Sequence record: OQ708376.1
Source: Escherichia phage vB_EcoM_CRJP21
DNA length: 64,000 nt
Strand: one strand, 5' to 3'
The translations under genes were made by a program, and so were the position numbers. Below the pieces are notes generated by a model. The model searched no databases. It saw only the letters and a program-made list of their open reading frames with translations, and was not told where the DNA came from. This document shows positions 911-19,320 of this stretch, piece by piece (the stretch's first letter is position 1; every line of letters starts with the position of its first letter).

Positions 911-1080
911 CAAAATTTTATTTTGTTTTTTCCAATAGTTCCCCTACCGCGTGGGGATAGTTTCCCCGCAGTATCTGGTGTTAGATTTTTCTGAATCTGG
1001 AATCATTATCTTATAAACTGGGGGCAATGTCAACGGCCTGGCCGGATATTTTTAAAAATTTTTTCAGTACTGAATTTTGG

Positions 1081-1145
1081 GCGTAACTATGCACCCGGTG
1101 GGCTTGAGTCTTTCTCGACTTGATGGAACTATTATACAGTACTGG
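1081..1145. repeat. R1 element copy 1 (GCACCCGGTGGG...CTTGATG...CAGTACTGG)
   Basis: about 60-bp element recurring at 3246 and 4778. Confidence 0.5.
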
Positions 1146-1536
1146 AAAAATAAAGCAATACCCTGGAAGCAAAAAAGTTTTAATTAATTTGCTTGCTATC
1201 CTGGGCCGGACTATGGTACTATATTTCAGTACTGAGAAAGTGCGTTTACCTGCTAGGGTGCGGGAGTGTATCCTTTTTTTATATCTTGAATTTTGGACGG
1301 ATCTTCCCACCCCCTGGGGTATCCGCTTTCTCGCGTCTATGTAGTAATTATACGCTTTTTCAGGATCAAGTCAATACCTAAAAACAAAATAATTGAAAAT
1401 AATTTAACGCGTTTAAACGGCCTGTAAAGCCCTGGAATGATTGGAATGGTGCAAATGTATAGCTTATGTGTATTAATGCGTTAGAATGCGTCTGAGGACG
1501 TTTTACGGGGTATAGGGATGATTTAGTGGATTGATT

Positions 1537-3104: not shown

Positions 3105-3186
3105 GCAGTTTACAAATCTTTACAATTGCCGGTATTGACTTATTTTGTCAGTACTGGCATAATGTATTCATTGGCAGATAAGCCGT

Positions 3187-3214
3187 AGCCCATAGGGTGC
3201 GGGAGTGTATCTAT
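3187..3214. repeat. R2 motif copy (AGCCCATAGGGTGCGGGAGTGTATCTAT)
   Basis: about 28-bp motif recurring at about 9172, 13194, 16469, 18721. Confidence 0.55.
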
Positions 3215-3245
3215 AGAAAAATTAGTTTAGTATAGTTACAATTGT

Positions 3246-3303
3246 GCACCCGGTGGGTTAGCTGTTGTCATGGGGTATATTATACCAGTACTTGATAATG
3301 CTG
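3246..3303. repeat. R1 element copy 2
   Basis: matches 1081..1145 and 4778..4833. Confidence 0.5.
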
Positions 3304-3354
3304 TCAATACTTTTTTTTTACTATTCAGTACTGAAAACTATTTTTAAAAAGTAC

Positions 3355-4712: not shown

Positions 4713-4748
4713 AACGCGGGGAGATAATAACTCCCCGTTACTTTTTCA
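4713..4748 (+). terminator. rho-independent terminator (GC stem + T-run)
   Basis: CGGGGAG-ataataa-CTCCCCG then CTTTTT. Confidence 0.6.
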
Positions 4749-4777
4749 GTACTGAATCATTTAATAGACGGATCTCG

Positions 4778-4833
4778 GCACCCGGTGGGTTAGTGACTGT
4801 TTCGTCTTGATGTAGTAATTATGCCAGTACTGG
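4778..4833. repeat. R1 element copy 3
   Basis: GCACCCGGTGGGTTAG...CTTGATGTAGTAATTATGCCAGTACTGG. Confidence 0.5.
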
Positions 4834-4954
4834 ATGCACTTGTCAACAATTATTTTCCAAATACTTTTTATTAAAATACTTGCAATTAGTTTTTAAACGC
4901 GTATAATGTTTTGCATAGGGGGAGCGGTTCCCCTGGTAACTAAGGAATAATAAA

Positions 4955-6592: not shown

Positions 6593-6610
6593 TGTCTGTA
6601 GTATTCCAGT

Positions 6611-7056: not shown

Positions 7057-7142
7057 AAAAAGTACTTGCAAAGTAAATCGAATAAAGTATAATACATTAC
7101 ATCAAGGGGAGAAATGATTCTCCCCACTACAAGGAAACTAAA

Positions 7143-7355
7143 ATGGCTATCATTACTAAAATCAAAGTTAACAAGACTATCGTTAAACTGGCAGAAGTGA
7201 AAGAAGGTTATAAAGTATCTTGGTGCGGTATGTATCGGACGTTCGCAGATATAGATGATGCGATCAATTATTACAGTGACACGGTTAAAAACTTTGTTCG
7301 TGCTGATGTGGTTATGGCAGTGGCAACATATAAAGCAGCGAAAGAAAGTAAGTAA
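7143..7355 (+). CDS. hypothetical protein (70 aa), MAII-start paralog group
   Basis: track ORF; promoter + GGGGAGAAATGATTCTCCCC hairpin. Confidence 0.65.
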   Translation: MAIITKIKVNKTIVKLAEVKEGYKVSWCGMYRTFADIDDAINYYSDTVKNFVRADVVMAVATYKAAKESK

Positions 7356-7374
7356 AAATATTATCACAGTACTA

Positions 7375-7403
7375 TTGACATAGTTTGATAGTACTGGCAT
7401 AAT
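7375..7403 (+). promoter_or_regulatory. class-II promoter (AGTACT-flanked TTGACA, 17 bp, CATAAT), no leader hairpin
   Basis: same architecture at about 9990, 10258, 18047. Confidence 0.6.
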
Positions 7404-7446
7404 AGATTTTATCAAGACGACACATATTAATTTAAGGAATACTAAA

Positions 7447-7770
7447 ATGGCTAAAACTATCATCAACACCGTTTCCCTGGCTGCAATCCATGCAATCAAT
7501 GTTGACGGTAAACGTTGGACTGATTCATATGGCAATACTTATCATTCTTGTCATGTAAGCGTTGAACTGGATAACGGCTTGAATGATCTGGCGGTTGAAT
7601 CATTTACTTATGGCTATGAGGATGCATATCAACAAACGGCGGTATCACTCTTAAAGGAATCAGTAGACGGGCTTGATACTGTTGAAACCTCCCTCTATCG
7701 TTTGTGCAATGATCTTAATATCCCGTTGCATTGTACTGTACAGGATGTAAAACGTAAAAAAGATCTTTAA
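7447..7770 (+). CDS. hypothetical protein (107 aa), paralog of 14078..14401
   Basis: shared RWTD..GNTYHSC..ETFTYGY..DVKRKKD motifs. Confidence 0.65.
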   Translation: MAKTIINTVSLAAIHAINVDGKRWTDSYGNTYHSCHVSVELDNGLNDLAVESFTYGYEDAYQQTAVSLLKESVDGLDTVETSLYRLCNDLNIPLHCTVQDVKRKKDL

Positions 7771-7850
7771 TTAGCTTTACTTTATGCAGATACTTTGATA
7801 TAGTGTCTGCATAGGGGAAAGAAATTAAATCAACTTAAGAGGAAAGTAAA

Positions 7851-8120
7851 ATGAAAAATATCAGTACTTTAATCGATGCAGGTACACATGTTCGTCGGTC
7901 TATGGTTGCAACCAGTTCTACAAAACAAGTAGCGAGCGGTTATCTTGTATTTGTGCACGATGGAAAACTCCTGGAACGTTCAATCAATTTTGATGTTAAA
8001 AACAATTGCCGTTTTATTATCTTTCGCCGTGAACAATATAAAATTGATTTGCCAGCGAAGCCCATTAGCGGGGCGTACAACGTGCAATCATTGTTTGAGC
8101 GTCAACCTTACACCTATTAA
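7851..8120 (+). CDS. hypothetical protein (89 aa)
   Basis: track ORF; RBS AAGAGGAAAG. Confidence 0.55.
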   Translation: MKNISTLIDAGTHVRRSMVATSSTKQVASGYLVFVHDGKLLERSINFDVKNNCRFIIFRREQYKIDLPAKPISGAYNVQSLFERQPYTY

Positions 8121-8171
8121 TCAAAACATCGTTAGCGGTCGATTTAGGCCGCTTATATTGGGGATTATACC

Positions 8172-8444
8172 ATGAACGTTAATCAAGTACTGAATGAGAT
8201 CGAAAGCATCATTAAACCGATGAAGCGTACTGATGCTATGTTAACACCGGAAGAATGCCGCCTTTATGAGCGTTACAGCGTCGAACAAGTCCAGGCAATG
8301 GCTATGGCTACCCCAGCCGTTTCACCGCCTGAGAATGCGTTACAGGACGTTACAGGGGATTATATCATTAATCCAGTACTAGGGAAGATGACTGCAATCA
8401 CCGAAGATCAAAAAGACTACTTAAGCCAGTACTTAAAAGGTTAA
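8172..8444 (+). CDS. hypothetical protein (90 aa)
   Basis: track ORF. Confidence 0.5.
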   Translation: MNVNQVLNEIESIIKPMKRTDAMLTPEECRLYERYSVEQVQAMAMATPAVSPPENALQDVTGDYIINPVLGKMTAITEDQKDYLSQYLKG

Positions 8445-8449
8445 TTAAT

Positions 8450-8659
8450 ATGCTTACTGTACAGGATAAGATCGACATCTTAAAGGTTAATATGTATGTG
8501 ATTGATGCCGTACCTGGTAAAGTATTTGCATACGATGATAGTACTGTAAGCGATTTCTACTATAGCCAGGACGTGGGGGATCTTTCTGTACAGTCGGTTA
8601 TTGAAAACGTAGTTAATGCAGCGTATGAGCATTTACTTTCAAATAGTACTTGCAATTAG
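8450..8659 (+). CDS. hypothetical protein (69 aa)
   Basis: track ORF; next promoter overlaps its 3' end. Confidence 0.5.
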   Translation: MLTVQDKIDILKVNMYVIDAVPGKVFAYDDSTVSDFYYSQDVGDLSVQSVIENVVNAAYEHLLSNSTCN

Positions 8660-8727
8660 TTTTTAAACGCGTATAATGTTTTACATGAAGGGGAGAAATG
8701 ATTCTCCCCAATAACAGGAGAAACAAA

Positions 8728-8880
8728 ATGAAACAATACAACGCTCGGTTTGATGTTACTATCGGTAACGGCAAAGGTCAATTCTCTTTCAGTACTCGCC
8801 GCAGTTATACAGAAAACTTCCTGCGTAATTGTGCACTGACCGCCGCTCAAATTAAACACTATTTTCAGGCTAAAAAATGA
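8728..8880 (+). CDS. hypothetical protein (50 aa)
   Basis: ATG 7 nt after CAGGAG; promoter + hairpin upstream. Confidence 0.55.
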   Translation: MKQYNARFDVTIGNGKGQFSFSTRRSYTENFLRNCALTAAQIKHYFQAKK

Positions 8881-8966
8881 AATCATTAGCTTATTACAGT
8901 TCGGCCCTGGTCGGTGCATTGATCGCGGCATTGTTAGTAACCTATCTATTCTTTATGGTGATTTAA
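8877..8966 (+). CDS. small hydrophobic peptide (29 aa, single predicted TM helix)
   Basis: ATGA overlap with upstream stop; MKSLAYYSSALVGALIAALLVTYLFFMVI. Confidence 0.4.
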   Translation: MKSLAYYSSALVGALIAALLVTYLFFMVI

Positions 8967-9110
8967 ATGAATCCAACAGGTTTAAACTATAAAAGTTGTT
9001 CTGCATTTACGAAAGCAAATAAAGCGAATGCACGTAAAGCGAAAGTACAGGAATACATCAAGCAAGGCATGACGCGAAAAGCGGCGATTATAAAAGCTAA
9101 AAATAAATGA
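8967..9110 (+). CDS. small basic protein (47 aa)
   Basis: TAAATG coupling; K/R-rich. Confidence 0.4.
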   Translation: MNPTGLNYKSCSAFTKANKANARKAKVQEYIKQGMTRKAAIIKAKNK

Positions 9111-9202
9111 AAAAAGTGGTTGACTTCGGTCAGCCATTTTGTTATTATATATTCATTGAGAGATAGCTCACTAGCCCACAGGGTGCAGGAGTGTATCTAT
9201 TG
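9111..9202 (+). repeat. intergenic cassette copy A: hairpin-embedded promoter (R3) + R2 28-mer
   Basis: TTGACT-17-TATTAT inside inverted repeat, then AGCCCACAGGGTGCAGGAGTGTATCTAT. Confidence 0.55.
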
Positions 9203-9320
9203 TATGAGTATTGAGTACTGAAAACTATTTTTAAAAAGTACTTGCAAACTATCTCAATAAGCGTATAATGTTTTACATCGAAAGGGGAAACGGTTTCCCC
9301 TGGTAATAAGGAAACAAATC

Positions 9321-9662
9321 ATGACTATCTCAATTGCTCAATCTAACTTTGAAAATGAAATCATCGCCCAGGCACTGCGTTTAAATGATGGTCGGGCCGA
9401 AATTAATTACGGTTTCAATTCAGGCGGTTGCGAAAAATATCAGTACTTTGTAACGGCTGATGGCGGTGTCCTGGGTATCAATACAGTTATTGTAAACATC
9501 CAAAAAATTAATTTCAATGATCCAGACGATAGCCAGTTTTACATCACTGGCGTAGACGTGAACTATGAGGATGACTCACTAACTGATGATCACACTGGCG
9601 AGCGGTTAGAAAGTGCATACGGTGAAGATGATTATCAGTCCGGTCCAGAAGATTTCGAATAA
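9321..9662 (+). CDS. hypothetical protein (113 aa)
   Basis: track ORF; promoter 9242-9269 + GGGGAAACGGTTTCCCC hairpin. Confidence 0.65.
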   Translation: MTISIAQSNFENEIIAQALRLNDGRAEINYGFNSGGCEKYQYFVTADGGVLGINTVIVNIQKINFNDPDDSQFYITGVDVNYEDDSLTDDHTGERLESAYGEDDYQSGPEDFE

Positions 9663-9758
9663 TATAAAAAAATAGTTTGACAATAGATTATAGTACTGTA
9701 TAATAGTTTACATCAAGGGGAGAAAAACTTCTCCCCACTAACAGAGAGAGAAAACAAA

Positions 9759-9971
9759 ATGGCTAATATCCGGTCGAAATTAAAAAATGCAAAACAAGTT
9801 TTATTTTCAGATCATGAATACTTTAATAAAGATATTACAGGAGTTACAAGTATCAAGGAAGTAAAAGAAAAAACCGGCGTTTTGTGTGATGTGCGATTAG
9901 TTGGAACATTTGGGAATAACGTGCTATATCGCTGCGGTGATTACAATTTTACACTGACTATCATTAACTAA
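9759..9971 (+). CDS. hypothetical protein (70 aa)
   Basis: track ORF; promoter TTGACA...TGTATAAT + hairpin. Confidence 0.6.
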   Translation: MANIRSKLKNAKQVLFSDHEYFNKDITGVTSIKEVKEKTGVLCDVRLVGTFGNNVLYRCGDYNFTLTIIN

Positions 9972-10053
9972 AAATATTATCACAGTACTATTGACATAGT
10001 TTGATAGTACTGACATAATAACTTTTATCAACTACACTATTAAGGAATTAAAA

Positions 10054-10233
10054 ATGGCTATCATCGCAAAAACTGAAATCGTTGGTCTGGATTCTATCAT
10101 CATGACGTTTGAAGATCAAAAAGGTATGTATGTAGTTTCATATGGTGATTATGTTCGGGAGTATGAAACGGTAGACGAAGCCTTTGAAAGTTACATTCGC
10201 CAGGTGAATAAAGCATACGACGATTACCGCTAA
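10054..10233 (+). CDS. hypothetical protein (59 aa, not in track), MAII-start paralog group
   Basis: hand translation MAIIAKTEIVGLDS...; class-II promoter upstream; replaces track minus ORF 10100..10300. Confidence 0.55.
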   Translation: MAIIAKTEIVGLDSIIMTFEDQKGMYVVSYGDYVREYETVDEAFESYIRQVNKAYDDYR

Positions 10234-10332
10234 AATATATTACCAGTACTATTAAAGATATTGACAACGTTTGATAGTACTGTATAATAAGTTTTATCAA
10301 CAGTAGTTAACTTAACCTAAGAGAGAAATAAA

Positions 10333-10476
10333 ATGATCGCACTGGATTCATTCATCGACGCAGTACTGGCAAAAACTGGCGAGGATCTGACCGCAGAACA
10401 ATACGCAATGATCGAGCAATGCCAGCAAGACGGTAAATCGGTGAAAGATACTGTTAAGATTATCCGCAAGATGTAA
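10333..10476 (+). CDS. hypothetical small protein (47 aa, not in track)
   Basis: class-II promoter + RBS AAGAGAGAAA; terminator follows. Confidence 0.5.
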   Translation: MIALDSFIDAVLAKTGEDLTAEQYAMIEQCQQDGKSVKDTVKIIRKM

Positions 10477-10482
10477 GATTAT

Positions 10483-10512
10483 AGCCCACTGGTTAACGCT
10501 GGTGGGCTTTAA
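10483..10512 (+). terminator. candidate terminator hairpin (contains Chi octamer GCTGGTGG at 10498-10505)
   Basis: AGCCCAC-loop-GTGGGCT, weak T-run. Confidence 0.4.
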
Positions 10513-10581
10513 TTCATTACCCTATACAATGCCAGTACTAAACCGTTTATCTCGTTAGAATGCGTTACAGGACGTTTAACA

Positions 10582-10779
10582 ATGATTAGCATGAAATCAG
10601 TACAAAAACAAATAGAAACATTATCAAAAATTAAACGTAAACAGTACTCCTTAGAATATACAATCAATGGTAACTATCATCTAATGAAAGAGAATAATTT
10701 TATAGTCATTGATGAATCATTGCAAATCATTAGTATAGTACTGAAAGCATTAATCAATGACAGAAAAAAATTAAAATAA
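10582..10779 (+). CDS. hypothetical protein (65 aa; alt start 10591)
   Basis: track ORF preceded by R4 motif. Confidence 0.45.
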   Translation: MISMKSVQKQIETLSKIKRKQYSLEYTINGNYHLMKENNFIVIDESLQIISIVLKALINDRKKLK

Positions 10780-10874
10780 ACTATTGACAATATCATCAAG
10801 TACTGGCATAATACTTACATCAAGACGAGAACGTCACTAACCCATAGGGTGCACAAATGTAACTGTATAATATT

Positions 10875-10905
10875 GATCAAAAAATGATCTGATCAATACT
10901 TGATC
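10875..10905. promoter_or_regulatory. cluster of four GATC sites (three TGATCA palindromes) in 31 bp
   Basis: direct read; intergenic. Confidence 0.5.
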
Positions 10906-11110
10906 AATTTGCGTAAAGTAGTATAATTCTATGCAGTTGGTTAGACGAAAGGTTATGATTAGTAGTGCAAGTGTATAAAAATTTTCATGGTGTATCGTTT
11001 CGCACATATGGGGATGAATATGTGGTATCATGTGGATTGGAAAAAGTAAGAACAAGTAATATTATTGTCGCATTACAGTACTATAGTATTTTTATAATGA
11101 GGTTAAAATA

Positions 11111-11368
11111 ATGGCTGTAGGATTCGCGAAAGATGGGGCCGAACAAGACGAGATTAACGCAGTGATTCAGGCCGCCGTTAACCACGCTAGAAAGCAAATT
11201 AACGCACAAATAGAATCACTGATACATTGCCTCGACTGCGGCGATATAATCCCTGAGAATCGACGCCAGGCCGTTAAGGGATGTAAGTACTGCATAACTT
11301 GCCAGGAGGATCATGATAGTACTTTTAAACGTCCCCCGCGTAATTGTTGGCATAGATCTATGAGATAA
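11111..11368 (+). CDS. TraR/DksA-family C4 zinc-finger protein
   Basis: CLDCGDIIPENRRQAVKGCKYCITC matches CxxCG-x3-IP-x2-RR-...-C-x2-C signature. Confidence 0.65.
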   Translation: MAVGFAKDGAEQDEINAVIQAAVNHARKQINAQIESLIHCLDCGDIIPENRRQAVKGCKYCITCQEDHDSTFKRPPRNCWHRSMR

Positions 11369-11431
11369 AAAGTATTGACAGTACTGAAAGATAGTGTATA
11401 ATGTTTTATATCTTAACTGAGGATAGAAATC

Positions 11432-11788
11432 ATGGGAATACAACATATCACGCGTACTACTGACAATGGCGAGATCACTGGTTATCAAGTACAGGGCAAA
11501 GTAGCACAATTGCAGTACTGGTTTGTTAAACGTGGAATCATTGCACCGGATCTTGATTATGACCGTGTAGCGTTTATTGATTCTCTTTATGTTGATCCTG
11601 ATAGTCGGGGCAATGGTGAAGGTAACGAATTAATGAATGCCTTTATTGATGCCGCCGATGATTCAGATTGTATCATTTTAGAATGCGATACGGGAGAAGA
11701 TAACGCCTTTAATCTTAAAGAATGGTACGAAGGTTTCGGATTCGAGGTACTGATCGATAGTGAATATCCTATCATGATTTTATCATAG
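11432..11788 (+). CDS. putative GNAT-like acetyltransferase (small)
   Basis: RGNGEGNELMNAFIDAA resembles GNAT motif A; assignment tentative. Confidence 0.4.
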   Translation: MGIQHITRTTDNGEITGYQVQGKVAQLQYWFVKRGIIAPDLDYDRVAFIDSLYVDPDSRGNGEGNELMNAFIDAADDSDCIILECDTGEDNAFNLKEWYEGFGFEVLIDSEYPIMILS

Positions 11789-11866
11789 TACTTGCATTTA
11801 GTTTTCAGTAGTGTTATAGTACTTACATCAAGGGGAAACATCTTCCCCTACTAAGAGGAAATGAAA

Positions 11867-12055
11867 ATGGAAAACTTATCAAGTATTTTAGTACAAGATG
11901 ATTTCGGTAATCCTGGAAGTGCTATCATTGTTCGGGGTAATAAAGCAACATTTGTTATTGCTGGTGGACCTGTACAGCGTAGCATTAAAAACAATGCCGT
12001 TACTATTAATAATGTACGCTATCGCTTAGATAAAGAATTGATTCATAAACTGTAA
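11867..12055 (+). CDS. hypothetical protein (62 aa)
   Basis: second ATG, 7 nt after AAGAGGA. Confidence 0.55.
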   Translation: MENLSSILVQDDFGNPGSAIIVRGNKATFVIAGGPVQRSIKNNAVTINNVRYRLDKELIHKL

Positions 12056-12082
12056 TATTAATTTAATAGAGGATAACAATAA

Positions 12083-12406
12083 ATGTACATTCATACTACT
12101 ATCACAAAGGAAGTCCGTTGCCAGTTCGAAAGTATTCCGGGCGTATGTTTCATCACTGGTACGTTTTCCCCTGGTGATCGTGATAATCCAGTACTGTTAC
12201 AATTACGCCATCCATCATGGGATAAAGCATTTGATCTACCGTTGAATGAATTCGCAACTACTGCTGAAAAGTACATTAAAAATATTCGCGAGAATGATCG
12301 ACTATTCATTAATGCTTTTAGTGATTCCGCGTTAAGCGAGATCCACGGTGTATTGGTTGCAATCATGGAATCAATGGAGAAAACTAAATTCAAACAAGGT
12401 GAATAA
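12083..12406 (+). CDS. hypothetical protein (107 aa)
   Basis: track ORF; RBS AGAGGA. Confidence 0.6.
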   Translation: MYIHTTITKEVRCQFESIPGVCFITGTFSPGDRDNPVLLQLRHPSWDKAFDLPLNEFATTAEKYIKNIRENDRLFINAFSDSALSEIHGVLVAIMESMEKTKFKQGE

Positions 12407-12412
12407 AAACTA

Positions 12413-12440
12413 TTGACAAGATAATCTAGTACTGTATAAT
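12413..12440 (+). promoter_or_regulatory. sigma70-like promoter with extended -10 (TTGACA, 16 bp, TGTATAAT)
   Basis: consensus boxes. Confidence 0.65.
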
Positions 12441-12489
12441 AAGTTACATGAAGGGGAGAAATGATTCTCCCCACTGAGAGGAAAGAAAA

Positions 12490-12702
12490 ATGCAAGGTCA
12501 ACTAATCGTTCGTAAATGGTCTGATACTAACGCTAAACCGTGGGATGTACAATACATCGGACCGGATGGGGTATCACGTTATCAGCCTGGCGTAACGCAT
12601 AGTACTGAGCAATATGCCGCCGCTCACCGCGAACGCCTGTTAGAATCCATGAAACAGGGATACGGTGAAAAATTCATTCAAGATCATTGGCTGAAAGATT
12701 AA
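12490..12702 (+). CDS. hypothetical protein (70 aa)
   Basis: track ORF; promoter + hairpin. Confidence 0.6.
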   Translation: MQGQLIVRKWSDTNAKPWDVQYIGPDGVSRYQPGVTHSTEQYAAAHRERLLESMKQGYGEKFIQDHWLKD

Positions 12703-12719
12703 TATAAGGAGTACAGCTT

Positions 12720-12812
12720 ATGCAAATGAATCCGATGATTATTGTTTTAGCTGTACTTATGATCATTCATGCAATAGTAGAAGTATTAACGCAATCAGGA
12801 GTAATAAAATGA
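12720..12812 (+). CDS. small hydrophobic peptide (30 aa, predicted TM)
   Basis: strong RBS TAAGGAG 8 nt upstream; MQMNPMIIVLAVLMIIHAIVEVL... Confidence 0.5.
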   Translation: MQMNPMIIVLAVLMIIHAIVEVLTQSGVIK

Positions 12813-12982
12813 TTCAAGTAGAATTATCAGTACTGAAAGATCTGTTTTATCGGTTAGGTACTACTGGCGAGTATCCTAAAAGTGATACCGCAAAACTTTT
12901 TGTATCACTCGACTTATGGCAACGCGAACAATTAGTAATGTCCTGGCGTAAAGGTAAAGCAGATAGCGAGGTGAAAGCATGA
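12809..12982 (+). CDS. hypothetical small protein (57 aa, not in track)
   Basis: ATGA coupling to upstream peptide. Confidence 0.45.
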   Translation: MIQVELSVLKDLFYRLGTTGEYPKSDTAKLFVSLDLWQREQLVMSWRKGKADSEVKA

Positions 12983-13128
12983 AAGAATTCTTATTCGAAG
13001 TAGTGTTTCAAGGTGTCGGTAGTAACCAACTGATTCGCTCAAGTGGTTACAATGTTAACCAGGCATGGAATAACATTAAACAAATGTACCCGAACGCTAT
13101 CACCTATCGCAACCCGAAACAAGTTTAA
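12979..13128 (+). CDS. hypothetical small protein (49 aa, not in track)
   Basis: ATGA coupling. Confidence 0.45.
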   Translation: MKEFLFEVVFQGVGSNQLIRSSGYNVNQAWNNIKQMYPNAITYRNPKQV

Positions 13129-13137
13129 AAATAATTG

Positions 13138-13234
13138 AAAAAGGGATTGACTCCGGTCAGTCCCTTTGCTATTATATACGCATAGAAACAAATCAGCCCA
13201 CAGGGTGCATAAATGTATCTATTGTTTGCTGGTG
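13138..13234 (+). repeat. intergenic cassette copy B (R3 hairpin-promoter + R2) followed by Chi octamer 13227-13234
   Basis: near-identical to copies at 9111, 16409, 18667. Confidence 0.55.
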
Positions 13235-13299
13235 GCTAGTACTGAAAACTATTTTTAAAAAAGTACTTGCATTGTACTTAGAATCAAGTATAATGTTTT

Positions 13300-13375
13300 A
13301 CATCAGGACGGGGAACGAAACAAGTAACCCCGTTAAGTAGTCCAGGAGTAAGACATAAGAAAACCTCCCCTGATA
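13300..13375 (+). ncRNA. candidate structured leader / small RNA (copy 2)
   Basis: about 90 percent identical by eye to 3390..3465; between tandem promoters. Confidence 0.35.
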
Positions 13376-13443
13376 AAATAGTTTGACAATAGAAAGTAAA
13401 CGAGTATAATACTTACATCAACCACTGATAAGGAAACATTAAA

Positions 13444-13719
13444 ATGCGGATTCTACTGACAGCTAACGAAATCGAACAAGTACTGACTACTAACCTGGAA
13501 GACTGGAAACGTGAAGCAGATATCCAGGCGGTTCAACGGCTTAACGATGAGTTAACGCCGGATGACTTAAGCAAGATTGTAGATCCTCAATTCTACGAAG
13601 ATATCCACGACACCGCGTTAAGCGTCGAGGATGTACTAGATAAGCACTACATTGATATTGATTTGCAGGTTTACGGTCGTAAAAACTTTATCACTATTCA
13701 CGACATTTACAATAATTAA
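13444..13719 (+). CDS. hypothetical protein (91 aa)
   Basis: track ORF; promoter TTGACA-16-TATAAT at 13382-13409. Confidence 0.65.
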   Translation: MRILLTANEIEQVLTTNLEDWKREADIQAVQRLNDELTPDDLSKIVDPQFYEDIHDTALSVEDVLDKHYIDIDLQVYGRKNFITIHDIYNN

Positions 13720-13805
13720 GTATTGACAAAGTATCTTAGTACTGTATAATAGTTTACATCGAGAGGGGGAATGGTTCCCCTCCTAACAAAGAGAGAGAAA
13801 TAAAA

Positions 13806-13988
13806 ATGGCTAAATGCACTATCTGTAAGAAAGAAATCGTATTAGTTCCAAGTGCCCGTGAACGTGCCGCTCGGTTCGGTGGCAAAGCGTCAGACTATAC
13901 AAAAATGTTTACTACCCATGCAGCTTGCCAGGTAGCAAAACGTTCACAAGAAAGCGTAGAATTAATGCGTAAACTTTCCAAAAAATAA
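13806..13988 (+). CDS. hypothetical protein (60 aa, Cys-containing)
   Basis: track ORF; promoter + GGGGGAATGGTTCCCCTCC hairpin. Confidence 0.6.
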   Translation: MAKCTICKKEIVLVPSARERAARFGGKASDYTKMFTTHAACQVAKRSQESVELMRKLSKK

Positions 13989-14077
13989 GTATTGACAAAG
14001 TATCTTAGTACTGTATAATAGTTTACATCAAGCGAGGGGAATGGTTCCCCTCCTAACTAAAAGAGAGAGAAATAAAA

Positions 14078-14401
14078 ATGGCTATGATCCTTACCCAGAA
14101 AGTAGAACTGAAAATTGTAACCTCCTTTGACATTAAAGTTAATCGCTGGACTGATCGGAACGGTAACACTTACCACTCTTGCTACGTGTCCGCGTTAATT
14201 GGCGACCGCTGGGAAGACTTGGGACATGAAACCTTTACTTACGGTTACGGTACACAAGGAGAATACACGGGCTTGGAGATCATTAAAGAAACCGTTATAG
14301 GTTTCAACCCGAAAGAAAAAGTTATTCACCGCATCGAAAAAGAGATTAACAAAGAAATAACAGTTCGCTACTACGATGTAAAACGTAAGAAAGACATGTA
14401 A
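14078..14401 (+). CDS. hypothetical protein (107 aa), paralog of 7447..7770
   Basis: promoter/leader duplicated from the 13727 copy. Confidence 0.65.
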   Translation: MAMILTQKVELKIVTSFDIKVNRWTDRNGNTYHSCYVSALIGDRWEDLGHETFTYGYGTQGEYTGLEIIKETVIGFNPKEKVIHRIEKEINKEITVRYYDVKRKKDM

Positions 14402-14496
14402 TAGAATCCATTTAAAGTACTATTTGACATTGCCCAGATAGTACTTTATAATAGACTCTAACTTGTAGTACTAACTCAACTAATAGGATGTATACC

Positions 14497-14892
14497 ATGA
14501 TTACTAAATTCTACGCTACCCGTGAAGCTGCCCGTATTGTTGCACGCGAGGAAGGAGCAGCATTTAAAGACATGGGCAAAGATGCACCGAAAGGTCAACG
14601 CTGGGCCGTACAGTTCAAAGAAATCTCTGATATCGTGAATTCACCGGAGCCAGTACTAACAGCAGCAGAACTAAAACGAGCGGATTTACTGGCGGCAGTA
14701 CTTAACGCACAAGATGAATTTATCGCTGATTCTGATATCAAAGTACAGACAAACCATACCGCTTGGACTCACGCGGATCACCTGGCAAACCTTAAGCGTC
14801 CAAGTGAACTGGTTCGCAACCAGAAAGAGATCCGACACGACCGTAAGGGTAATCGTGTAACAGTATACAGTAAACGCCGCCAGGTTATCTAA
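14497..14892 (+). CDS. hypothetical protein (131 aa), paralog of 2520..2786
   Basis: ATG 8 nt after TAGGA; shared motifs. Confidence 0.6.
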   Translation: MITKFYATREAARIVAREEGAAFKDMGKDAPKGQRWAVQFKEISDIVNSPEPVLTAAELKRADLLAAVLNAQDEFIADSDIKVQTNHTAWTHADHLANLKRPSELVRNQKEIRHDRKGNRVTVYSKRRQVI

Positions 14893-14914
14893 TAACTTGC
14901 AGTACTAACAACAC

Positions 14915-14940
14915 GGCGGGATCAGTTCCCGCCTTTTTTA
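14915..14940 (+). terminator. rho-independent terminator
   Basis: GGCGGGA-tcagt-TCCCGCC + TTTTTT. Confidence 0.75.
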
Positions 14941-14954
14941 TAGGATAAACTAAA

Positions 14955-15209
14955 ATGATTAAGGTACAACTATCTAAAGATAATATCTTGCGGGTACACT
15001 ATAAAGCACCACAGAGAATCATCACAAAGGCCGTACAGCTTGCTAATGAGTTTATTAATGGTAACCTATTACCAAGGAAGTTAAGCAACGGAAAACTGCG
15101 TGTAATCGATGTAGACACTAACAACAGAATAGTAATTGAGAACACAGGAAAGATAAACCTATATGAACACCAACAATATAATAAGAAAATAAAACTAATA
15201 TCACGTTGA
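14955..15209 (+). CDS. hypothetical protein (84 aa)
   Basis: track ORF. Confidence 0.55.
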   Translation: MIKVQLSKDNILRVHYKAPQRIITKAVQLANEFINGNLLPRKLSNGKLRVIDVDTNNRIVIENTGKINLYEHQQYNKKIKLISR

Positions 15210-15262
15210 CAGTACTCAATTGTTTTAGTACTATGTACATATACCAACACGGGAGAAACAAA

Positions 15263-15481
15263 ATGAAATTATCTAAAATCGAAAAGAAAACTATTGATGA
15301 AGCAGTTAAGCACGGTTATACCTTTCGTAATGATTCACATTTTACCAATTTTCAACAAGGGTATCGTACTATTAAAAAACTCATTGACAAAGGTTTATTA
15401 GTTGAAGTCAATAACGGCAATGGTATTGAGTATCAACCAACACAAGACGCATTTTATTTTAAGAAATATAATATTATCTAA
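15263..15481 (+). CDS. hypothetical protein (72 aa)
   Basis: internal ATG after promoter TTGACAGTACTCAA... Confidence 0.55.
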   Translation: MKLSKIEKKTIDEAVKHGYTFRNDSHFTNFQQGYRTIKKLIDKGLLVEVNNGNGIEYQPTQDAFYFKKYNII

Positions 15482-15539
15482 TTGACAGTACTCAAATGTT
15501 TTAGTACTATATGTACATACCAACACGGGGAAAAACAAA

Positions 15540-15782
15540 ATGATTACTTTAGAAAAACGTATCAAAGAAACTACATCGCTGGTGGAACTGTTAACAGTAC
15601 TGAAATGCCGTACTACTCGGTTTAGTACACCGGACTTTATTAATATGGTTGATGTTAATGGTCGCTATCGTATCACGGTCGAACAAGGAGCGGCGAAAGT
15701 ATTCAGTACTAAAAACACTAAGGAAGTGATTCACGCTGTAAGTGTTAAAAAAGTAGTTGCCATTGATAGTAAAGTACTGTAA
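15540..15782 (+). CDS. hypothetical protein (80 aa)
   Basis: track ORF; promoter duplicated from upstream gene. Confidence 0.55.
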   Translation: MITLEKRIKETTSLVELLTVLKCRTTRFSTPDFINMVDVNGRYRITVEQGAAKVFSTKNTKEVIHAVSVKKVVAIDSKVL

Positions 15783-15813
15783 GATAGTTTCATTAACTCA
15801 AGGAGAACATGCA

Positions 15814-16398
15814 ATGCGTAATTATACTAAATTCATCCGTACCCTGTCAGAAATGGAAACCAACAAAGAGATCCTTTCAGCTTGTCGGTTAGCTGGTCTG
15901 GAGATCATCGGTGCGGGTTCTTCCCGTATTGTATTCGCTTTAAATGATCGGTTAGTGATTAAGGTCGCGAATTGTGATGCGGGTGTAGAACAAAATGAAA
16001 CTGAATGTAAGGTATGGAATTTTTTAGATTATGACCGCCCTCAATTGAAACAGTACTTTGCAAAGGTGCATATGCATTTATGCGATCCTGATAATATGTT
16101 TATCGTTATGGATCGGTTGAGTACTGCAAGTAAAGGCAGTGTAAAGCACGTAAACGCGTGCAATGAATTAAAGTACAATATTAAACGTAATGCCATTGAA
16201 CGCCAGCACCGCTTTGCTGATGCACTACAACACGTTGATGATACATTATCAACACTAACGATAAGAGATATCAGAAAACAGAATATCGGCCAGGATCGTA
16301 ATGGCCTTATTAAAGTACTTGATTACGGTTTAACCCGCAATATCTGGAATCAGTACTATAAAAAGCGTGATGTAGAAGCAAGTAAGGTAACACGATAA
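15814..16398 (+). CDS. protein-kinase-like protein (ePK/RIO/Kdo-kinase-like fold)
   Basis: Gly-rich loop IGAGSSRIVF, Lys motif VIKV, catalytic-loop-like IRDIRKQNIG, DFG-like LDYG; RBS AGGAG. Confidence 0.5.
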   Translation: MRNYTKFIRTLSEMETNKEILSACRLAGLEIIGAGSSRIVFALNDRLVIKVANCDAGVEQNETECKVWNFLDYDRPQLKQYFAKVHMHLCDPDNMFIVMDRLSTASKGSVKHVNACNELKYNIKRNAIERQHRFADALQHVDDTLSTLTIRDIRKQNIGQDRNGLIKVLDYGLTRNIWNQYYKKRDVEASKVTR

Positions 16399-16408
16399 AA
16401 AAGATTAA

Positions 16409-16498
16409 AAAAGGGATTGACTCCGGTCAGTCCCTTTGCTATTATATATTCATTGAGAGATAACTCACTGACCCATAGGGTGCGGAAGTGTATCTATT
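16409..16498 (+). repeat. intergenic cassette copy C (R3 + R2)
   Basis: near-identical to other copies. Confidence 0.55.
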
Positions 16499-16619
16499 AT
16501 ATAAGTATTCAGTACTGAAAACTATTTTTAAAAAAGTACTTGCATTGTACTTAGAATCAAGTATAATGTTTTACATAGAGAGGGGGAAATGGTTCTCCCT
16601 GGTAATAAGGAATAAAATC

Positions 16620-16841
16620 ATGACTACAATGACTTGCATTTACGCTTCCAATCTTCTGAATGATGCGGCCTTTAATGTTGATTCAGAATATCAATGTTAT
16701 CGGGATGAAAATAAAAAAGTTTTTGTAGTTGATAATAATGGTTTCCATATTGAATTACAATCCGGTTTCACTGGTGTTGATGGTAAATCAGTGTGGGGCG
16801 TACAGGATGATAAAGGCACATATCATTTTAAACGTAATTAA
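16620..16841 (+). CDS. hypothetical protein (73 aa)
   Basis: internal ATG after promoter and hairpin. Confidence 0.6.
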   Translation: MTTMTCIYASNLLNDAAFNVDSEYQCYRDENKKVFVVDNNGFHIELQSGFTGVDGKSVWGVQDDKGTYHFKRN

Positions 16842-16925
16842 GTATTGACAAAGTATATCAGTACTGTATAATAGTTTACATCAAGGGGAGAATAGTTCTC
16901 CCCGATACTAAAAGGAAACAAAATT

Positions 16926-17198
16926 ATGTCCAGCTACTCCGCTACTATGATCATTAAAGATATGAACGGTAATCCTACTTCTGCTGGTGGATCATTTGGA
17001 AACATTAATTTAGATGGTCGGTTATCCATGCAATCAGCCATCGATGCAGCGAAAGAAGTTTTTAAGAATGAATGTACTGTTAGTAAGATGGATTATATGG
17101 GATTCGCTATCGAGAAAACTAATCGTTTTGTGAACTACAAAAATCCACTGATGATTGATACTAACCTGAAAGCTAACGAAGTGGGGTACTTATTATGA
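16926..17198 (+). CDS. hypothetical protein (90 aa)
   Basis: track ORF; promoter TTGACA...TGTATAAT + hairpin. Confidence 0.6.
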   Translation: MSSYSATMIIKDMNGNPTSAGGSFGNINLDGRLSMQSAIDAAKEVFKNECTVSKMDYMGFAIEKTNRFVNYKNPLMIDTNLKANEVGYLL

Positions 17199-17386
17199 CA
17201 GTAGAAGAAGTTAAAAAAGTACTGGCAGTACTACGCTATCATAATCATTGCAAGGTGAAGAATGATCCTGATTATGTTGATTCATCCCTGGAGGAAGACA
17301 CATTAAACGCAATAAGCCATATGCAAACATTAGCAAAGCGTATGACCGAAAAGAATAGACCGGACTATATCGGAAATAAAATTTAA
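17195..17386 (+). CDS. hypothetical protein (63 aa)
   Basis: ATGA translational coupling. Confidence 0.55.
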   Translation: MTVEEVKKVLAVLRYHNHCKVKNDPDYVDSSLEEDTLNAISHMQTLAKRMTEKNRPDYIGNKI

Positions 17387-17472
17387 AAAGTACTTGCATT
17401 GTAGTTAGATTAACGTATAATGTTTTACATAGAGCGGGGGAATAGTTCTCCCGCCAGTCCAGGAGATACACC

Positions 17473-17736
17473 ATGAACACTATCGAAATCACTATCAATG
17501 CACACGTATACGACAACGTAGTACTGCAAACTACTATGACCGCTAATGATACCAGTACTTTGCGGAATACCGTTGTAAGTGCTGTATGTGCTGCAATCGG
17601 TGATGTAGCCCTGGAAAATGCAGAACACATCAACAACGGTTTCACTATGTGCAAACGTGATAACGCAAAACATATCATCTTAGAAGGTTACGGCGGTGTA
17701 GAATATAATCTTTATATGAAAAAAGTACTTGCATAA
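17473..17736 (+). CDS. hypothetical protein (87 aa)
   Basis: track ORF; promoter + hairpin; RBS AGGAGA. Confidence 0.65.
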   Translation: MNTIEITINAHVYDNVVLQTTMTANDTSTLRNTVVSAVCAAIGDVALENAEHINNGFTMCKRDNAKHIILEGYGGVEYNLYMKKVLA

Positions 17737-17803
17737 TAACTAAAACAAAGTATAATGTTTTGCATAGGGGGAGATATCCTCCCCCACTAAAAGGAGTAAT
17801 AAA

Positions 17804-18028
17804 ATGGCTAACTTTGATGAACTGATGCGGGAAGTAGCTAACCTGGCAGAAGAGAAGAAATCATTCGATTCTATCTATAACACCGCTCACCGTGATTCAG
17901 TACTGGCATGTACTCAGGATCAAAAAGATGAACTAATCGCCACCTATCATGAAGCATGGAAGTACTACCGACAATGGGAGAAAGAAGAAAGTGAGTCTAC
18001 CATTGACGGCCTCAATAATCTAATCTAA
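17804..18028 (+). CDS. hypothetical protein (74 aa)
   Basis: track ORF; promoter overlaps stop of upstream gene. Confidence 0.6.
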   Translation: MANFDELMREVANLAEEKKSFDSIYNTAHRDSVLACTQDQKDELIATYHEAWKYYRQWEKEESESTIDGLNNLI

Positions 18029-18104
18029 AAGTTTTATTTCAGTACTATTGACATAGCTTGATAGTACTGATGTAATAACTTTACTAACTACAAGGGGAAA
18101 CATA

Positions 18105-18362
18105 ATGGAACAGTTCACACAATATCGGGTAAATCCTCAAGCTATGGCCTACGTAGAAGACCATAAAACATTACCAGTACTGCAACCAGTTAAAGGCCAT
18201 ATCTATCGTGCTATGTCGTGGAGTACTGCACAGGATGGATATAAAACCGTTGCCGTGGGTATGTATTGCGGGAATGGTGAATGGTTTGATCCAAATAATC
18301 CGGTAGCCATTGACAGTACTGAAAAAATGAAATGGGCCGACTACATCGAAGATATTTCATAA
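18105..18362 (+). CDS. hypothetical protein (85 aa)
   Basis: track ORF; class-II promoter. Confidence 0.6.
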   Translation: MEQFTQYRVNPQAMAYVEDHKTLPVLQPVKGHIYRAMSWSTAQDGYKTVAVGMYCGNGEWFDPNNPVAIDSTEKMKWADYIEDIS

Positions 18363-18451
18363 AACTATTTGACAGTACTAACCAGTAATGTATAATGTTT
18401 TACATAGAGCGGGGGAATAGTTCTCCCGTCAATAGTTTGGAGTAAAACATT

Positions 18452-18652
18452 ATGTCTATCGCTATCGCCCTGGTTGAAGTACTGAAAGAAGCTAAAGCCA
18501 ACCTTATCGATGTACAGATTAAGGAATTACAAAATGGTTTAATCGGCTGTACTTGTACCGCTGGTGGAGCGGCAGACTATCGGGAATTCGAATCACTTGA
18601 ATCGATGGTCCGTTATCTTACCATGATCGTAGAAGATTGGAGAATCATCTAA
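18452..18652 (+). CDS. hypothetical protein (66 aa)
   Basis: track ORF; promoter + hairpin. Confidence 0.6.
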   Translation: MSIAIALVEVLKEAKANLIDVQIKELQNGLIGCTCTAGGAADYREFESLESMVRYLTMIVEDWRII

Positions 18653-18666
18653 CAAAAAAGAATAAA

Positions 18667-18790
18667 AAAAGGGATTGACTCCGGTCAGTCCCTTTGCTAT
18701 TATATACTCATAGACAAAAACTAGCCCACTGGGTGCAGGAGTGTATCTAAAATATATAGTTAATAACGGTGAGTAACTATCTGCTGGTGG
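18667..18790 (+). repeat. intergenic cassette copy D (R3 + R2) followed by Chi octamer 18783-18790
   Basis: direct read. Confidence 0.55.
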
Positions 18791-18898
18791 GGTGAAAACT
18801 ATTAATAAAAAAAGTATTGACAAAGTATATCAGTACTGCAATAATGTATCTCGTAGGGCGGCAATGGTGCGACGGCCCACAAAGTTAGGAGATTCAAA

Positions 18899-19231
18899 AT
18901 GAGTACTTCAATCGCTATCGTTAAAGCTTTCATCCGTACCAATGTTTCATCTGTATTCATCGACGGTCTGGATCGGGAAGTAGAATACTCAATCATTATC
19001 GCACAGACTGCAAACGGTGCTCGGTATATCCTTAATGATAGTGAAGCAAATCACTACTACTTCACTAAAGCTACTGGCTTTAAACGCATCGATGCTGACG
19101 TAGTATACACTAAGATGAATAAGCTGGTAGACAAGATTAACGCGAAAGGTACTATCGATTTACAGTACTGGACCGAAACCGATCCAGAATATGGATCTCA
19201 CCGCTACCTGAATCCAGGTATTAAAATGTAA
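18899..19231 (+). CDS. hypothetical protein (110 aa)
   Basis: track ORF; RBS AGGAG. Confidence 0.65.
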   Translation: MSTSIAIVKAFIRTNVSSVFIDGLDREVEYSIIIAQTANGARYILNDSEANHYYFTKATGFKRIDADVVYTKMNKLVDKINAKGTIDLQYWTETDPEYGSHRYLNPGIKM

Positions 19232-19320
19232 AAAGTACTTGCATAGTACTTAGAATCAAGTATAATGTTTTACATAGAGAGGGGGAAATGGTTCTCCCTC
19301 CTAAATTAAGGAGTTTTATC

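Follow-up and report, generated by a model that had tools for sequence, protein, structure and literature searches.

A conserved predicted RNA module behind repeated terminator-promoter cassettes in the terminal-repeat region of Rak2-like jumbo phages

Introduction

Promoter-early stem-loop (PeSL) cassettes are known from T4-type phages, where the stem-loop may overlap the -35 box of the promoter (Arbiol et al., 2010, PMC2839356; Comeau et al., 2014, PMC4122927). In the distantly related jumbo phage PA5oct, RNA-seq revealed two highly expressed non-coding RNAs of 236 and 451 nt in the terminal repeat, the function of which is unknown (PMC7318152). Rak2-like jumbo phages (Asteriusvirus, Alcyoneusvirus, Mimasvirus, Eneladusvirus) are in use in phage-therapy work, and almost nothing is known of their early programme: some 80% of the genes are without an assigned function, and no transcriptome of an enterobacterial member was found in the literature searched. 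Here, we analyse a stretch of 64,000 nucleotides from Escherichia phage vB_EcoM_CRJP21 (OQ708376.1; hereafter the window), an E. coli jumbo phage of the genus Asteriusvirus with 96% identity to phage UB, in which an earlier note had marked four copies of an intergenic cassette consisting of a promoter embedded in a hairpin and a conserved 28-mer. From the sequence comparisons described below, we lean towards the view that this cassette is a PeSL-type terminator-promoter fused to a conserved 5'-terminal RNA module, which would give an immediate-early non-coding RNA or leader with a partner; it is probable that the 28-mer is a module at the level of RNA rather than a promoter.

Short conserved elements that are transcribed just past early promoters are represented by the nut sites (boxA/boxB) of lambda and the put sites of HK022, both of which form small stem-loops, with a purine-rich loop in boxB, and put RNA works without any phage protein. 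The promoters of the N4 virion polymerase carry a small hairpin with a 3-nt loop. No description of the 28-mer or of the units that contain it was found in papers on CBB, RaK2, fEgEco12, PA5oct or jumbo-phage transcription, so that they apparently form an undescribed family, of which the conserved RNA module and the stand-alone and convergent-pair forms are new.

Promoter Linkage and Anatomy of the Module

Copies of the unit were gathered from K64-1 (Klebsiella), GAP32 (Cronobacter), CBB (Pectobacterium), Munch (Salmonella), fHe-Yen9-03 (Yersinia), Hallingskeid (Erwinia) and jumbo contigs of IMG/VR, giving 115 units in 332 kb of relatives' sequence from phages of eight enterobacterial genera (Escherichia, Klebsiella, Salmonella, Cronobacter, Pectobacterium, Erwinia, Yersinia, and Serratia), with 9-13 copies per genome. 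Each of the 101 distinct copies is preceded, in its own orientation, by a sigma-70-type promoter that matches at least 8 of the 12 consensus positions (10-12 in 86 copies), and in 99 of them 20-29 nt separate the end of the -10 box from the CCC of the core. Since each copy lies at this distance downstream of its own -10 box, the 28-mer would occupy about +19 to +50 of the predicted transcript, which should start at the A of a conserved CAT. The distance between promoter and core varies by up to 9 nt, which argues against a rigid DNA contact with a promoter-bound polymerase.

In the window, the 28-mer was found as the earlier note had described it at 3187, 9173, 13195, 16470, and 18723 (at most 3 mismatches, 0 expected by chance), together with its variants, which start at 1248 and 10839. 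The 28-mers of the confirmed cassettes begin 19-24 nt past the -10 box. The copy at 3187, thought to occur alone, has a promoter of its own at 3135-3163, and the same holds for the variants at 1248 and 10839 (for the latter at 10784-10812). This arrangement, with a sigma-70 promoter of like orientation at a nearly constant distance upstream, also speaks against the proposal that the 28-mer is itself a promoter of a phage-encoded single-subunit RNA polymerase.

The conserved block exceeds 28 nt, as it includes a 5' hairpin or an A-rich stretch between the start site and the 28-mer. The order is start site, 5' hairpin with a 4-bp stem and a purine-rich loop (GNGAAA, AGAUAA or AGAACAA), and core. 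The core has the consensus tAgCCCAcAGGGTGCggAA.TgTAtCtAta, in which C7 and G14 are invariant; the 28-mer can form a nearly invariant mini-hairpin, R-CCC-AYA-GGG-U, followed by the conserved tail GC-RRARR-UGUAUCUAU. Both the 5' hairpin and the CCC/GGG hairpin are predicted by RNAalifold. In the subset of copies selected for having the 5' hairpin, 62 cells of the stem are changed on both sides, compared to 20.9 in shuffled alignments (none of 500 shuffles reaches this number), and 97% of the stem cells are paired, whereas a shift of the register leaves no more than 44% paired. For all 107 distinct model hits the corresponding numbers are 155 and 54 (0 of 500 shuffles), in an alignment that was fitted to the covariance model and is thus biased towards the structure. 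The CCC/GGG hairpin is pairable in 95-99% of cases, with a few double changes from C:G to U:A and with alternation of A-U and G-U at the closing pair.

Several other readings of the core were tried and rejected. A pseudoknot between the 5' loop (AGAUA) and the tail (UAUCU) fits only the copies of E. coli phages and is, on inspection, not conserved in other genera; a small open reading frame (ORF) in or after the core has, also on inspection, no conserved start codon or reading frame; and no convincing match to a DnaA box or an IHF site was seen by eye inside the core. Two terminators of the window, at 5834-5850 and 6565-6586, have a stem AGCCCAC/GTGGGCT that equals the first 7 nt of the 28-mer, and a similar terminator is present in K64-1 (L099 29350). 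These terminators are a possible evolutionary source of the core.

Confinement to the Terminal-Repeat Region

A covariance model built from 22 relatives and run with filters off over all 64 kb detected exactly 11 units in the window, on both strands and all within 1067-18760; the search beyond the first copies that the earlier note had proposed thus gave none between 19 and 64 kb. Four of the 11 are additional copies on the minus strand, each with a promoter (1067-1123, 1283-1339, 3222-3267, and 4754-4810). The first ~20 kb have a G+C content of 0.36-0.41, compared to 0.30-0.35 in the remaining window, and are dense in small plus-strand ORFs (50-200 aa), and at least 24 near-consensus sigma-70 promoter cassettes (AGTACTTGCA-N-GTATAATGTTTTACAT with a leader hairpin) lie upstream of early ORFs in 1-20 kb. 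In megablast, 9000-19000 matches the four E. coli jumbo phages UB, slurp01, Turkey3, and BF17 of the genus Asteriusvirus (94-96% identity over at least 80% of the length), with genomes of 348-383 kb. In fEgEco12, the counterpart of this early region falls within the direct terminal repeat, which has been experimentally confirmed and measures 20,993 bp (~21 kb) (PMC13070987), and in CBB every homologous copy of the unit is inside the terminal repeat of 22.4 kb (PMC5259590). Because these counterparts are inside their repeats, the units of the window are placed inside a terminal-repeat block of early genes. In the complete 352-kb relative EC22.5-2, all nine units are found in one 19-kb block (30.8-49.6 kb).

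A phage RNA polymerase gene, the presence of which had been suggested as a check, was sought in EC22.5-2: Pfam gave no RNA polymerase family among the 16 largest ORFs (at least 654 aa), smaller multisubunit fragments not being scanned, and PHROGs gave none among the six of these 16 ORFs that were scanned. The 3,333-aa ORF of this phage belongs to a virion structural protein family. The clade uses the host RNA polymerase with a phage sigma factor and a gp55-like factor, and other promoter motifs (PMC5259590, PMC7318152); the proposed middle (TGAAACG...TATA) and late (ATAAATA) promoters are upstream of replication and structural genes (PMC5259590), and PA5oct is dependent on the host polymerase (PMC7318152). 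The 28-mer does not stand upstream of and facing middle or late genes; it is confined to the terminal-repeat block, and many copies lack a downstream gene and aim into a terminator or at the other member of a convergent pair.

Outside these phages the module has left no trace in the databases searched. A comparison of the 64-kb window with Rfam gave no match that reached the gathering score, and in 1100-3400 no match at E <=5 overlapped a unit; no tRNA or tmRNA was found. A BLAST search of 5,426 E. coli genomes with the core as a 34-nt query, which detects only matches longer than ~20 nt, found nothing, and the exact pattern CCCAYAGGGTGC-N5-TGTATCTA had no hits in the genomes of 185,579 species of bacteria and archaea. 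On these grounds, mimicry of the host and a long target in the host were rejected. Within the phage, antisense targets were likewise rejected, as 9-mers complementary to the core show no enrichment in the window outside the units (45 vs 34 +/- 7.5). The core is not known to match the E. coli type I-E or I-F CRISPR repeats, and mimicry of such a repeat was discarded, the resemblance to I-F being out of register.

Genomic Contexts of the Units

The units occur in three main contexts. In about 42 copies, among them the four cassettes that were first described, an A/T-rich stretch leads to a second promoter and a gene. About 30 copies are arranged in face-to-face pairs with their start sites ~120-140 bp apart, in the window at 1222-1285/1283-1339 and 3169-3224/3222-3267. 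The transcripts of a convergent pair would contain the core and the complement of the core of the partner, and hairpins of 16-29 bp are predicted (z = -3 to -4.8). Stand-alone copies are often located on the minus strand between two plus-strand genes, with a bidirectional intrinsic terminator within ~25 nt, so that the predicted RNAs are of ~100 nt; in the window this arrangement consists of the promoter 4818-4846, the module 4754-4810, and the terminator 4716-4738. T-tracts on both sides of the terminator hairpin are seen in this window copy (4716-4738), in K64-1 (L099 14359- and 21740-), and in Munch (L102 12032-), and orthologous stand-alone units are present in K64-1, RaK2, and Erwinia phage Hallingskeid. 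One copy directly precedes a ribosome-binding site and ATG (L091 12605). The layout of a small-RNA gene, with its own promoter, a short non-coding region, and an intrinsic terminator, is thus predicted for the stand-alone units and the convergent pairs, and not for the ~42 tandem copies.

The inverted copies carry the whole unit and all copies therefore make the same RNA and not its complement, which excludes a signal specific for one genome strand. A link to a single gene family was also considered and rejected: the downstream and upstream proteins are mutually unrelated, and the module is, given the unrelated downstream genes, not bound to one family.

In several relatives, the loop between convergent units contains a palindrome that resembles a Fur box. 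Such palindromes were noted in K64-1 (L099 10502 and 11363), Munch (L102 7434), L091 (6091), L014 (1286), and a Yersinia phage (L103 344). Those of K64-1, L091, and Munch read GA(G/T)AATGATAATCATTTAC, with 2-3 mismatches to GATAATGATAATCATTATC, and the copies of L014 and the Yersinia phage are weaker (4-5 mismatches); K64-1 and L014 have further clusters nearby (912-1027 in L014). The palindrome is absent from the terminal-repeat region of the E. coli phage window. Its sequence suggests a sensing of the host iron status via Fur, or a titration of Fur.

The Hairpin-Promoter Part as a PeSL-Type Cassette

The hairpins that had been described for the four cassettes are present, although the coordinates given for them were off by 1-2 nt and only three are identical. 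The sequence AAAGGGATTGACTCCGGTCAGTCCCTTT occurs exactly at 13140-13167, 16410-16437, and 18668-18695 (0 expected by chance), and the fourth copy, at 9113-9140, has diverged to AAAGTGGTTGACTTCGGTCAGCCATTTT, in which GGGA/TCCC is replaced by GTGG/CCAT and the pairing of the stem is kept. The promoter TTGACT-17 nt-TATTAT is present as described at 9120-9148, 13147-13175, 16417-16445, and 18675-18703, in each case with TG before the -10 box and with A-rich tracts upstream; the promoters of the other units agree with the consensus at 10-12 of 12 positions. The idea that the hairpin could double as terminator of the upstream gene is supported as probable: all four hairpins begin 3-16 nt past a stop codon (the upstream ORFs end at 9110, 13128, 16398, and 18652), their 12 pairs overlap the -35 box and score as terminator-like, with termination itself being predicted, and the architecture corresponds to that of published PeSLs. 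A hairpin that bears the -35 box is found in only 4 of the 11 units of the window.

Near-consensus sigma-70 early promoters with an AT-rich upstream region, and a stable stem-loop, here a predicted terminator, after the stop codon at or over the promoter, are thus shared with PeSLs. Copies are also clustered in a plastic ORFan region with repeat-bounded indels, which applies to the promoter cassettes in general and not specifically to those with the 28-mer: indels between the window and phage 121Q (L033) at 12055/12405, 13812/13980, and 17432/17720 have their breakpoints in repeated promoter cassettes. A cassette that ends at the ribosome-binding site or start codon of the next gene, with no conserved transcribed element, is not what is seen here, as a module of ~50 nt follows the promoter and the next element of most copies is a second promoter, a terminator or a convergent unit rather than a gene start. 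On the basis of its sequence features the hairpin-promoter matches the PeSL class.

Single small ORFs of the window that are missing from 121Q are flanked by repeated promoter cassettes (12055-12405, 13812-13980, and 17432-17720). As judged from the alignment of the two sequences, this difference is a classic PeSL-type gain or loss of an ORFan with its cassette.

Proposed Role of the Module and Alternative Explanations

We propose that the units are immediate-early non-coding transcription units that would be read by the host RNA polymerase and of which the RNA would be the product. The RNA, or its making, is taken as the product because units without genes are terminated and conserved across genera and because the spacing between promoter and core is variable. 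The module would form the 5' end of three kinds of RNA, namely leaders that run into a second promoter and gene, stand-alone RNAs of ~100 nt, and the hairpins of convergent pairs, and the invariant hairpin with its tail would most likely be a sequence-specific site on the RNA that is recognised by a partner acting in trans, whether a phage protein or a conserved factor of the host. The high copy number and the strong promoters suggest a stoichiometric action, as decoy or sponge, or a tagging of transcripts; a protein-binding decoy or tag on RNA is, however, only a tentative assignment for the 28-mer. As a speculation, Hfq could be such a partner, given the U-rich terminators and the A-rich, (ARN)n-like loop at the 5' end.

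A number of points weigh against this proposal. Start sites, ends, and abundance are predicted for every member, and most copies (~42) precede another promoter and gene, which would also fit a role in cis. About 15 of 85 copies have no 5' hairpin and carry an A-rich unpaired stretch such as CAUAGAAACAA instead. Within the 28-mer, covariation is weak (2 cells changed on both sides, a number reached by 12 of 500 shuffles) and the sequence is near-invariant, so that an RNA structure inside it is unproven. An alternative hairpin, GGGUGCR-N4-YGUAUCU, which uses the same GGG, was rejected as conserved structure or attenuator, its pairability of 89% being no better than that of shuffles, and a T-tract follows it in just 8 of 100 copies. 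Single units fold no significantly better than shuffled sequence (z = -1.5 to -1.9). Hairpins at the 5' end stabilise mRNA in general, and the covariation found there shows transcription and not that the 28-mer acts as RNA. Finally, no partner protein or target RNA was identified, and complements of the core are not enriched elsewhere in the window.

The alternative that best withstands the evidence, while in our opinion unlikely, is a cis-acting elongation signal in the nascent RNA or the non-template DNA, comparable to lambda nut, HK022 put, RfaH ops, Q-type pause sites or the BglG RAT. The polymerase would be modified or paused, after which it would read through terminators in the terminal repeat, or attenuation would take place at the alternative hairpin. 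The module does lie always just past a strong early promoter, as nut, put, and Q sites do; of its two small stem-loops, the first recalls boxB in its purine-rich, GNRA-like loop; the region is rich in terminator hairpins; and ~42 copies are upstream of genes. In addition, a hexamer like a -10 box occupies a fixed register at the 3' end of the core (76 of 100 copies match TATAAT at 4 or more of the 6 positions), and with both A2 and T6 of this hexamer present in 46 of 100 copies it could cause a sigma-70-dependent pause. A few copies combine the alternative hairpin with a T-tract (1255-1274 in the window), but these amount to only 8 of 100 overall. Neither a boxA-like (GCUCUUUA) nor an ops (GGCGGTAG) sequence is present, and in place of a ~70-nt fold of two stems before promoter-less genes there are stems of 4 bp in a region where nearly every gene has its own promoter, for which reason antitermination is not obviously needed. 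For stand-alone and convergent copies with no downstream gene, read-through would only give antisense RNA or collisions.

An operator in double-stranded DNA is still less probable. A phage or host regulator would bind the 28-bp site (+19 to +50) and block or modulate the strong early promoters, for example in an early shut-off of this subset of promoters. The very high conservation of the sequence, with little internal covariation, and the promoter-proximal position in every copy would agree with this, as would the Fur-box-like palindromes in the convergent loops of relatives, which show that protein-binding DNA sites occur at these loci, and a regulator site had also been suggested by the earlier note. 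However, the site is asymmetric and 28-30 bp long, it may lie anywhere between 20 and 29 nt from the -10 box, and pairing is maintained by C:G to U:A double changes and the A-U/G-U alternation. The majority class of early promoters in the region (24 copies) lacks the site, and an operator does not explain the gene-less units that are kept across genera in the orthologues of K64-1, RaK2, and Hallingskeid.

We give even less weight to a selfish or structural repeat, in which PeSL-type recombination cassettes spread by duplication and inversion and carry the 28-mer along as a functionless hitch-hiker, for example the remnant of a terminator arm. The indels between the window and 121Q are bounded by promoter cassettes, the terminators at 5834-5850 and 6565-6586 share their stem with the start of the 28-mer, and convergent pairs resemble inverted duplications, but the core is near-invariant while flanks, 5' hairpin stems, and genes have diverged, and a run of 12 positions with at least 90% identity, in ~100 copies from eight host genera, is not what neutral hitch-hiking would preserve. 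That the 28-mer serves a phage RNA polymerase or an alternative sigma factor as promoter is very unlikely, for although the conserved length and continuity are like those of T7-type promoters, the core contains a CCCACA-17 nt-TATAAT-like spacing, and the clade encodes a sigma-70-family factor (PMC5259590, PMC13070987), the 28-mer is restricted to the terminal repeat, always behind a sigma-70 promoter, and often aimed at a terminator or convergent copy, the proposed middle and late promoters of the clade are different motifs at other genes (PMC5259590), and the 16 largest ORFs of EC22.5-2 hold no RNA polymerase domain.

If the module is an RNA recognition site, as we propose, the units may form part of an RNA-based immediate-early takeover or anti-defence system, an extension in which we place little confidence. 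Within seconds of DNA entry, the host polymerase would make large amounts of RNA with the invariant motif from the 9-13 loci per genome, and copies in the terminal repeat would be present at both ends of the packaged DNA. As RNA anti-CRISPRs do, the RNA might titrate a conserved enterobacterial factor, for instance Hfq or a different RNA-binding protein, an immune sensor or a nuclease; alternatively, it might reprogram the transcribing polymerase without a phage protein, as put RNA does; in some relatives, the convergent pairs would be tied to the host iron status via the Fur box in the loop. With its conservation over eight host genera and its confinement to the DNA that is injected first, the module is an easily testable candidate for a host-takeover RNA, and it carries the notion of mobile terminator-promoter cassettes, familiar from PeSLs, over to jumbo phages, with a non-coding RNA as payload. 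Present annotations put spurious small ORFs on the units, which the covariance model used here could annotate correctly.

The Eleven Units of the Window

Designated A to K, the units are distributed as follows, with promoters of A and B read by eye and scores in bits from the covariance model. Unit A (1067..1158, minus strand) has the promoter TTGCTT-16-TATAAT at 1131-1158 and a module at 1067-1123 composed of the 5' hairpin GUCG-AGAAAG-GACU and the core GCCCACCGGGTGCATAGTTACGCCC (49.6 bits, E 4.5e-11). Unit B (1193..1285, plus strand) is degenerate, with a weak promoter (TTGCTA-18-TACTAT), a module at 1222-1285 that contains the 28-mer variant ACCTGCTAGGGTGCGGGAGTGTATCCTT at 1248-1275 (14.9 bits, E 0.38), and the alternative hairpin at 1255-1274, which is followed by T7 and is terminator-like. 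Its convergent partner C (1283..1374, minus strand) has the promoter TTGACT-16-TATAAT at 1347-1374, with the module at 1283-1339 (27.7 bits, E 8.5e-5), and the region of B and C folds as a long hairpin (z = -3.0). The second pair consists of unit D (3135..3224, plus strand; promoter TTGACT-17-CATAAT at 3135-3163, module 3169-3224, 28-mer 3187-3214, 52.7 bits) and unit E (3222..3307, minus strand; promoter TTGACA-17-TATAAT at 3279-3307 with 12 of 12 consensus positions, module 3222-3267, 30.9 bits). As D and E face each other, each RNA would hold a core and its complement and fold into a hairpin of ~28 bp, with z values for the region of -4.8 on the plus and -4.1 on the minus strand.

Unit F (4716..4846, minus strand) stands alone, with the promoter TTGACA-17-CATAAT at 4818-4846, the module at 4754-4810 (55.9 bits), and a bidirectional intrinsic terminator at 4716-4738 that is shared with the plus-strand ORF 4460-4711, which predicts an RNA of ~100 nt. 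The remaining units are all on the plus strand. Unit G (9113..9210), with its -35 box in the hairpin or terminator 9113-9140 and its promoter at 9120-9148, has the module at 9154-9210 (60.1 bits) and the 28-mer at 9173-9200, followed by a second promoter (9242-9269) and the gene 9321-9662. Unit H (10784..10876) has the promoter TTGACA-17-CATAAT at 10784-10812 with no enclosing hairpin; its module (10820-10876, 49.4 bits) includes the 28-mer variant 10839-10866, upstream of a DksA/TraR-like zinc-finger ORF (11111-11368). Unit I (13140..13232; hairpin 13140-13167, promoter 13147-13175) has an A-rich 5' stretch and no 5' hairpin in its module (13181-13232, 37.8 bits), the 28-mer at 13195-13222, and a second promoter at 13267-13294. 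The highest score belongs to unit J (16410..16507; hairpin 16410-16437, promoter 16417-16445, module 16451-16507, 69 bits), with the 28-mer at 16470-16497 and a second promoter at 16540-16567, and the series ends with unit K (18668..18760; hairpin 18668-18695, promoter 18675-18703, module 18709-18760, 40.9 bits), in which the 28-mer is at 18723-18750 and the second promoter at 18817-18845.

Other Features of the Region

The main class of early promoters is found at 24 sites in 1650-19290 and is followed from about +6 by a GC-rich leader hairpin (GGGGAAAnnGTTCCCC-like), the sequence of which differs from copy to copy; on this basis the 5' ends of early mRNAs in the window phage seem generally to be capped by a stem-loop, presumably for stability. 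The palindrome AGTACT is over-represented in both parts of the window (128 vs 6.5 expected in 1-20 kb and 126 vs 14.7 in 20-64 kb), as is its extended form CAGTACTG (33 vs 0.24 and 29 vs 0.38, respectively), with examples at 3150-3156, 9214-9219, and 13240-13245. It often adjoins a -10 box (cAGTACTGTATAAT) or a -35 box (AGTACTTGCA), is present in coding regions too, and could be a regulator site, a modification site or a promoter element. At 779-906, about 16 iterons of eight bp (nGAnGGCT) are located inside a stretch of ~1 kb (1-1000) with no ORF of 50 aa or more, and the minus-strand unit A (1067-1158) as well as another minus-strand promoter (1005-1033) are directed at this array, which is a candidate for a replication origin or a packaging or terminal signal.

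Downstream of the terminal repeat, many diverged copies of a coding repeat of 30-60 nt (GAAGAAGAATACTTTCAG...TTAGTA) occur in 26584-51113, and tandem paralogous segments of ~450 bp in 37054-39153; judged by their sequences, these indicate a large paralogous gene family. In EC22.5-2 (L109), 31219-33915 and 34531-37260 encode adjacent paralogues of ~900 aa with no Pfam match, which belong to the PHROG family phrog_3573 of unknown function.

Comparison With Known Systems

Among the known systems, transcribed elements such as nut and put have in common with the units a stem-loop element located just downstream of an early promoter. The stems of put are larger, ~70 nt, and nut and put occur once per operon, upstream of genes that need read-through. 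In contrast, the units have no boxA consensus and are present in 9-13 copies per genome, many of which lack a downstream gene. By analogy, the protein-free action of put would suit an immediate-early element.

Promoters of T7- and N4-type phage polymerases are similar to the 28-mer in having a contiguous conserved block of ~28 nt, but the 28-mer is placed and oriented like part of a transcribed region and not like a promoter, and no polymerase gene was detected in the ORFs scanned.

The non-coding RNAs of PA5oct, in a long terminal repeat as well, may serve by analogy as a precedent for the RNA-based role proposed here, although they are longer (236 and 451 nt) and have no detectable homology to the units; homology was rejected since the covariance model had no match in either locus (L105, L106).

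In the layout of the stand-alone units, with their own promoter, a length of ~100 nt, a conserved 5' region, an A/U-rich spacer, and an intrinsic terminator, there is a likeness to multicopy small RNAs of enterobacteria and phages and to RNA decoys such as RNA anti-CRISPRs and pseudo-ToxI, and the several near-identical copies with strong promoters suit the titration of a partner, as in decoys.

The closest resemblance of the cassette as a whole is to the PeSLs. Both combine a strong early promoter of sigma-70 type, preceded by an AT-rich stretch, with a stable stem-loop as terminator of the upstream gene, the latter predicted for the units, and both are repeated among small ORFan genes, with breakpoints of indels between related phages in the repeats. 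However, published PeSLs were found in Tevenvirinae and run to a Shine-Dalgarno sequence and start codon with no conserved transcribed module, whereas in the Rak2-like jumbo phages a conserved RNA module of ~50 nt follows the promoter, in units that may also be gene-less, inverted or convergent.

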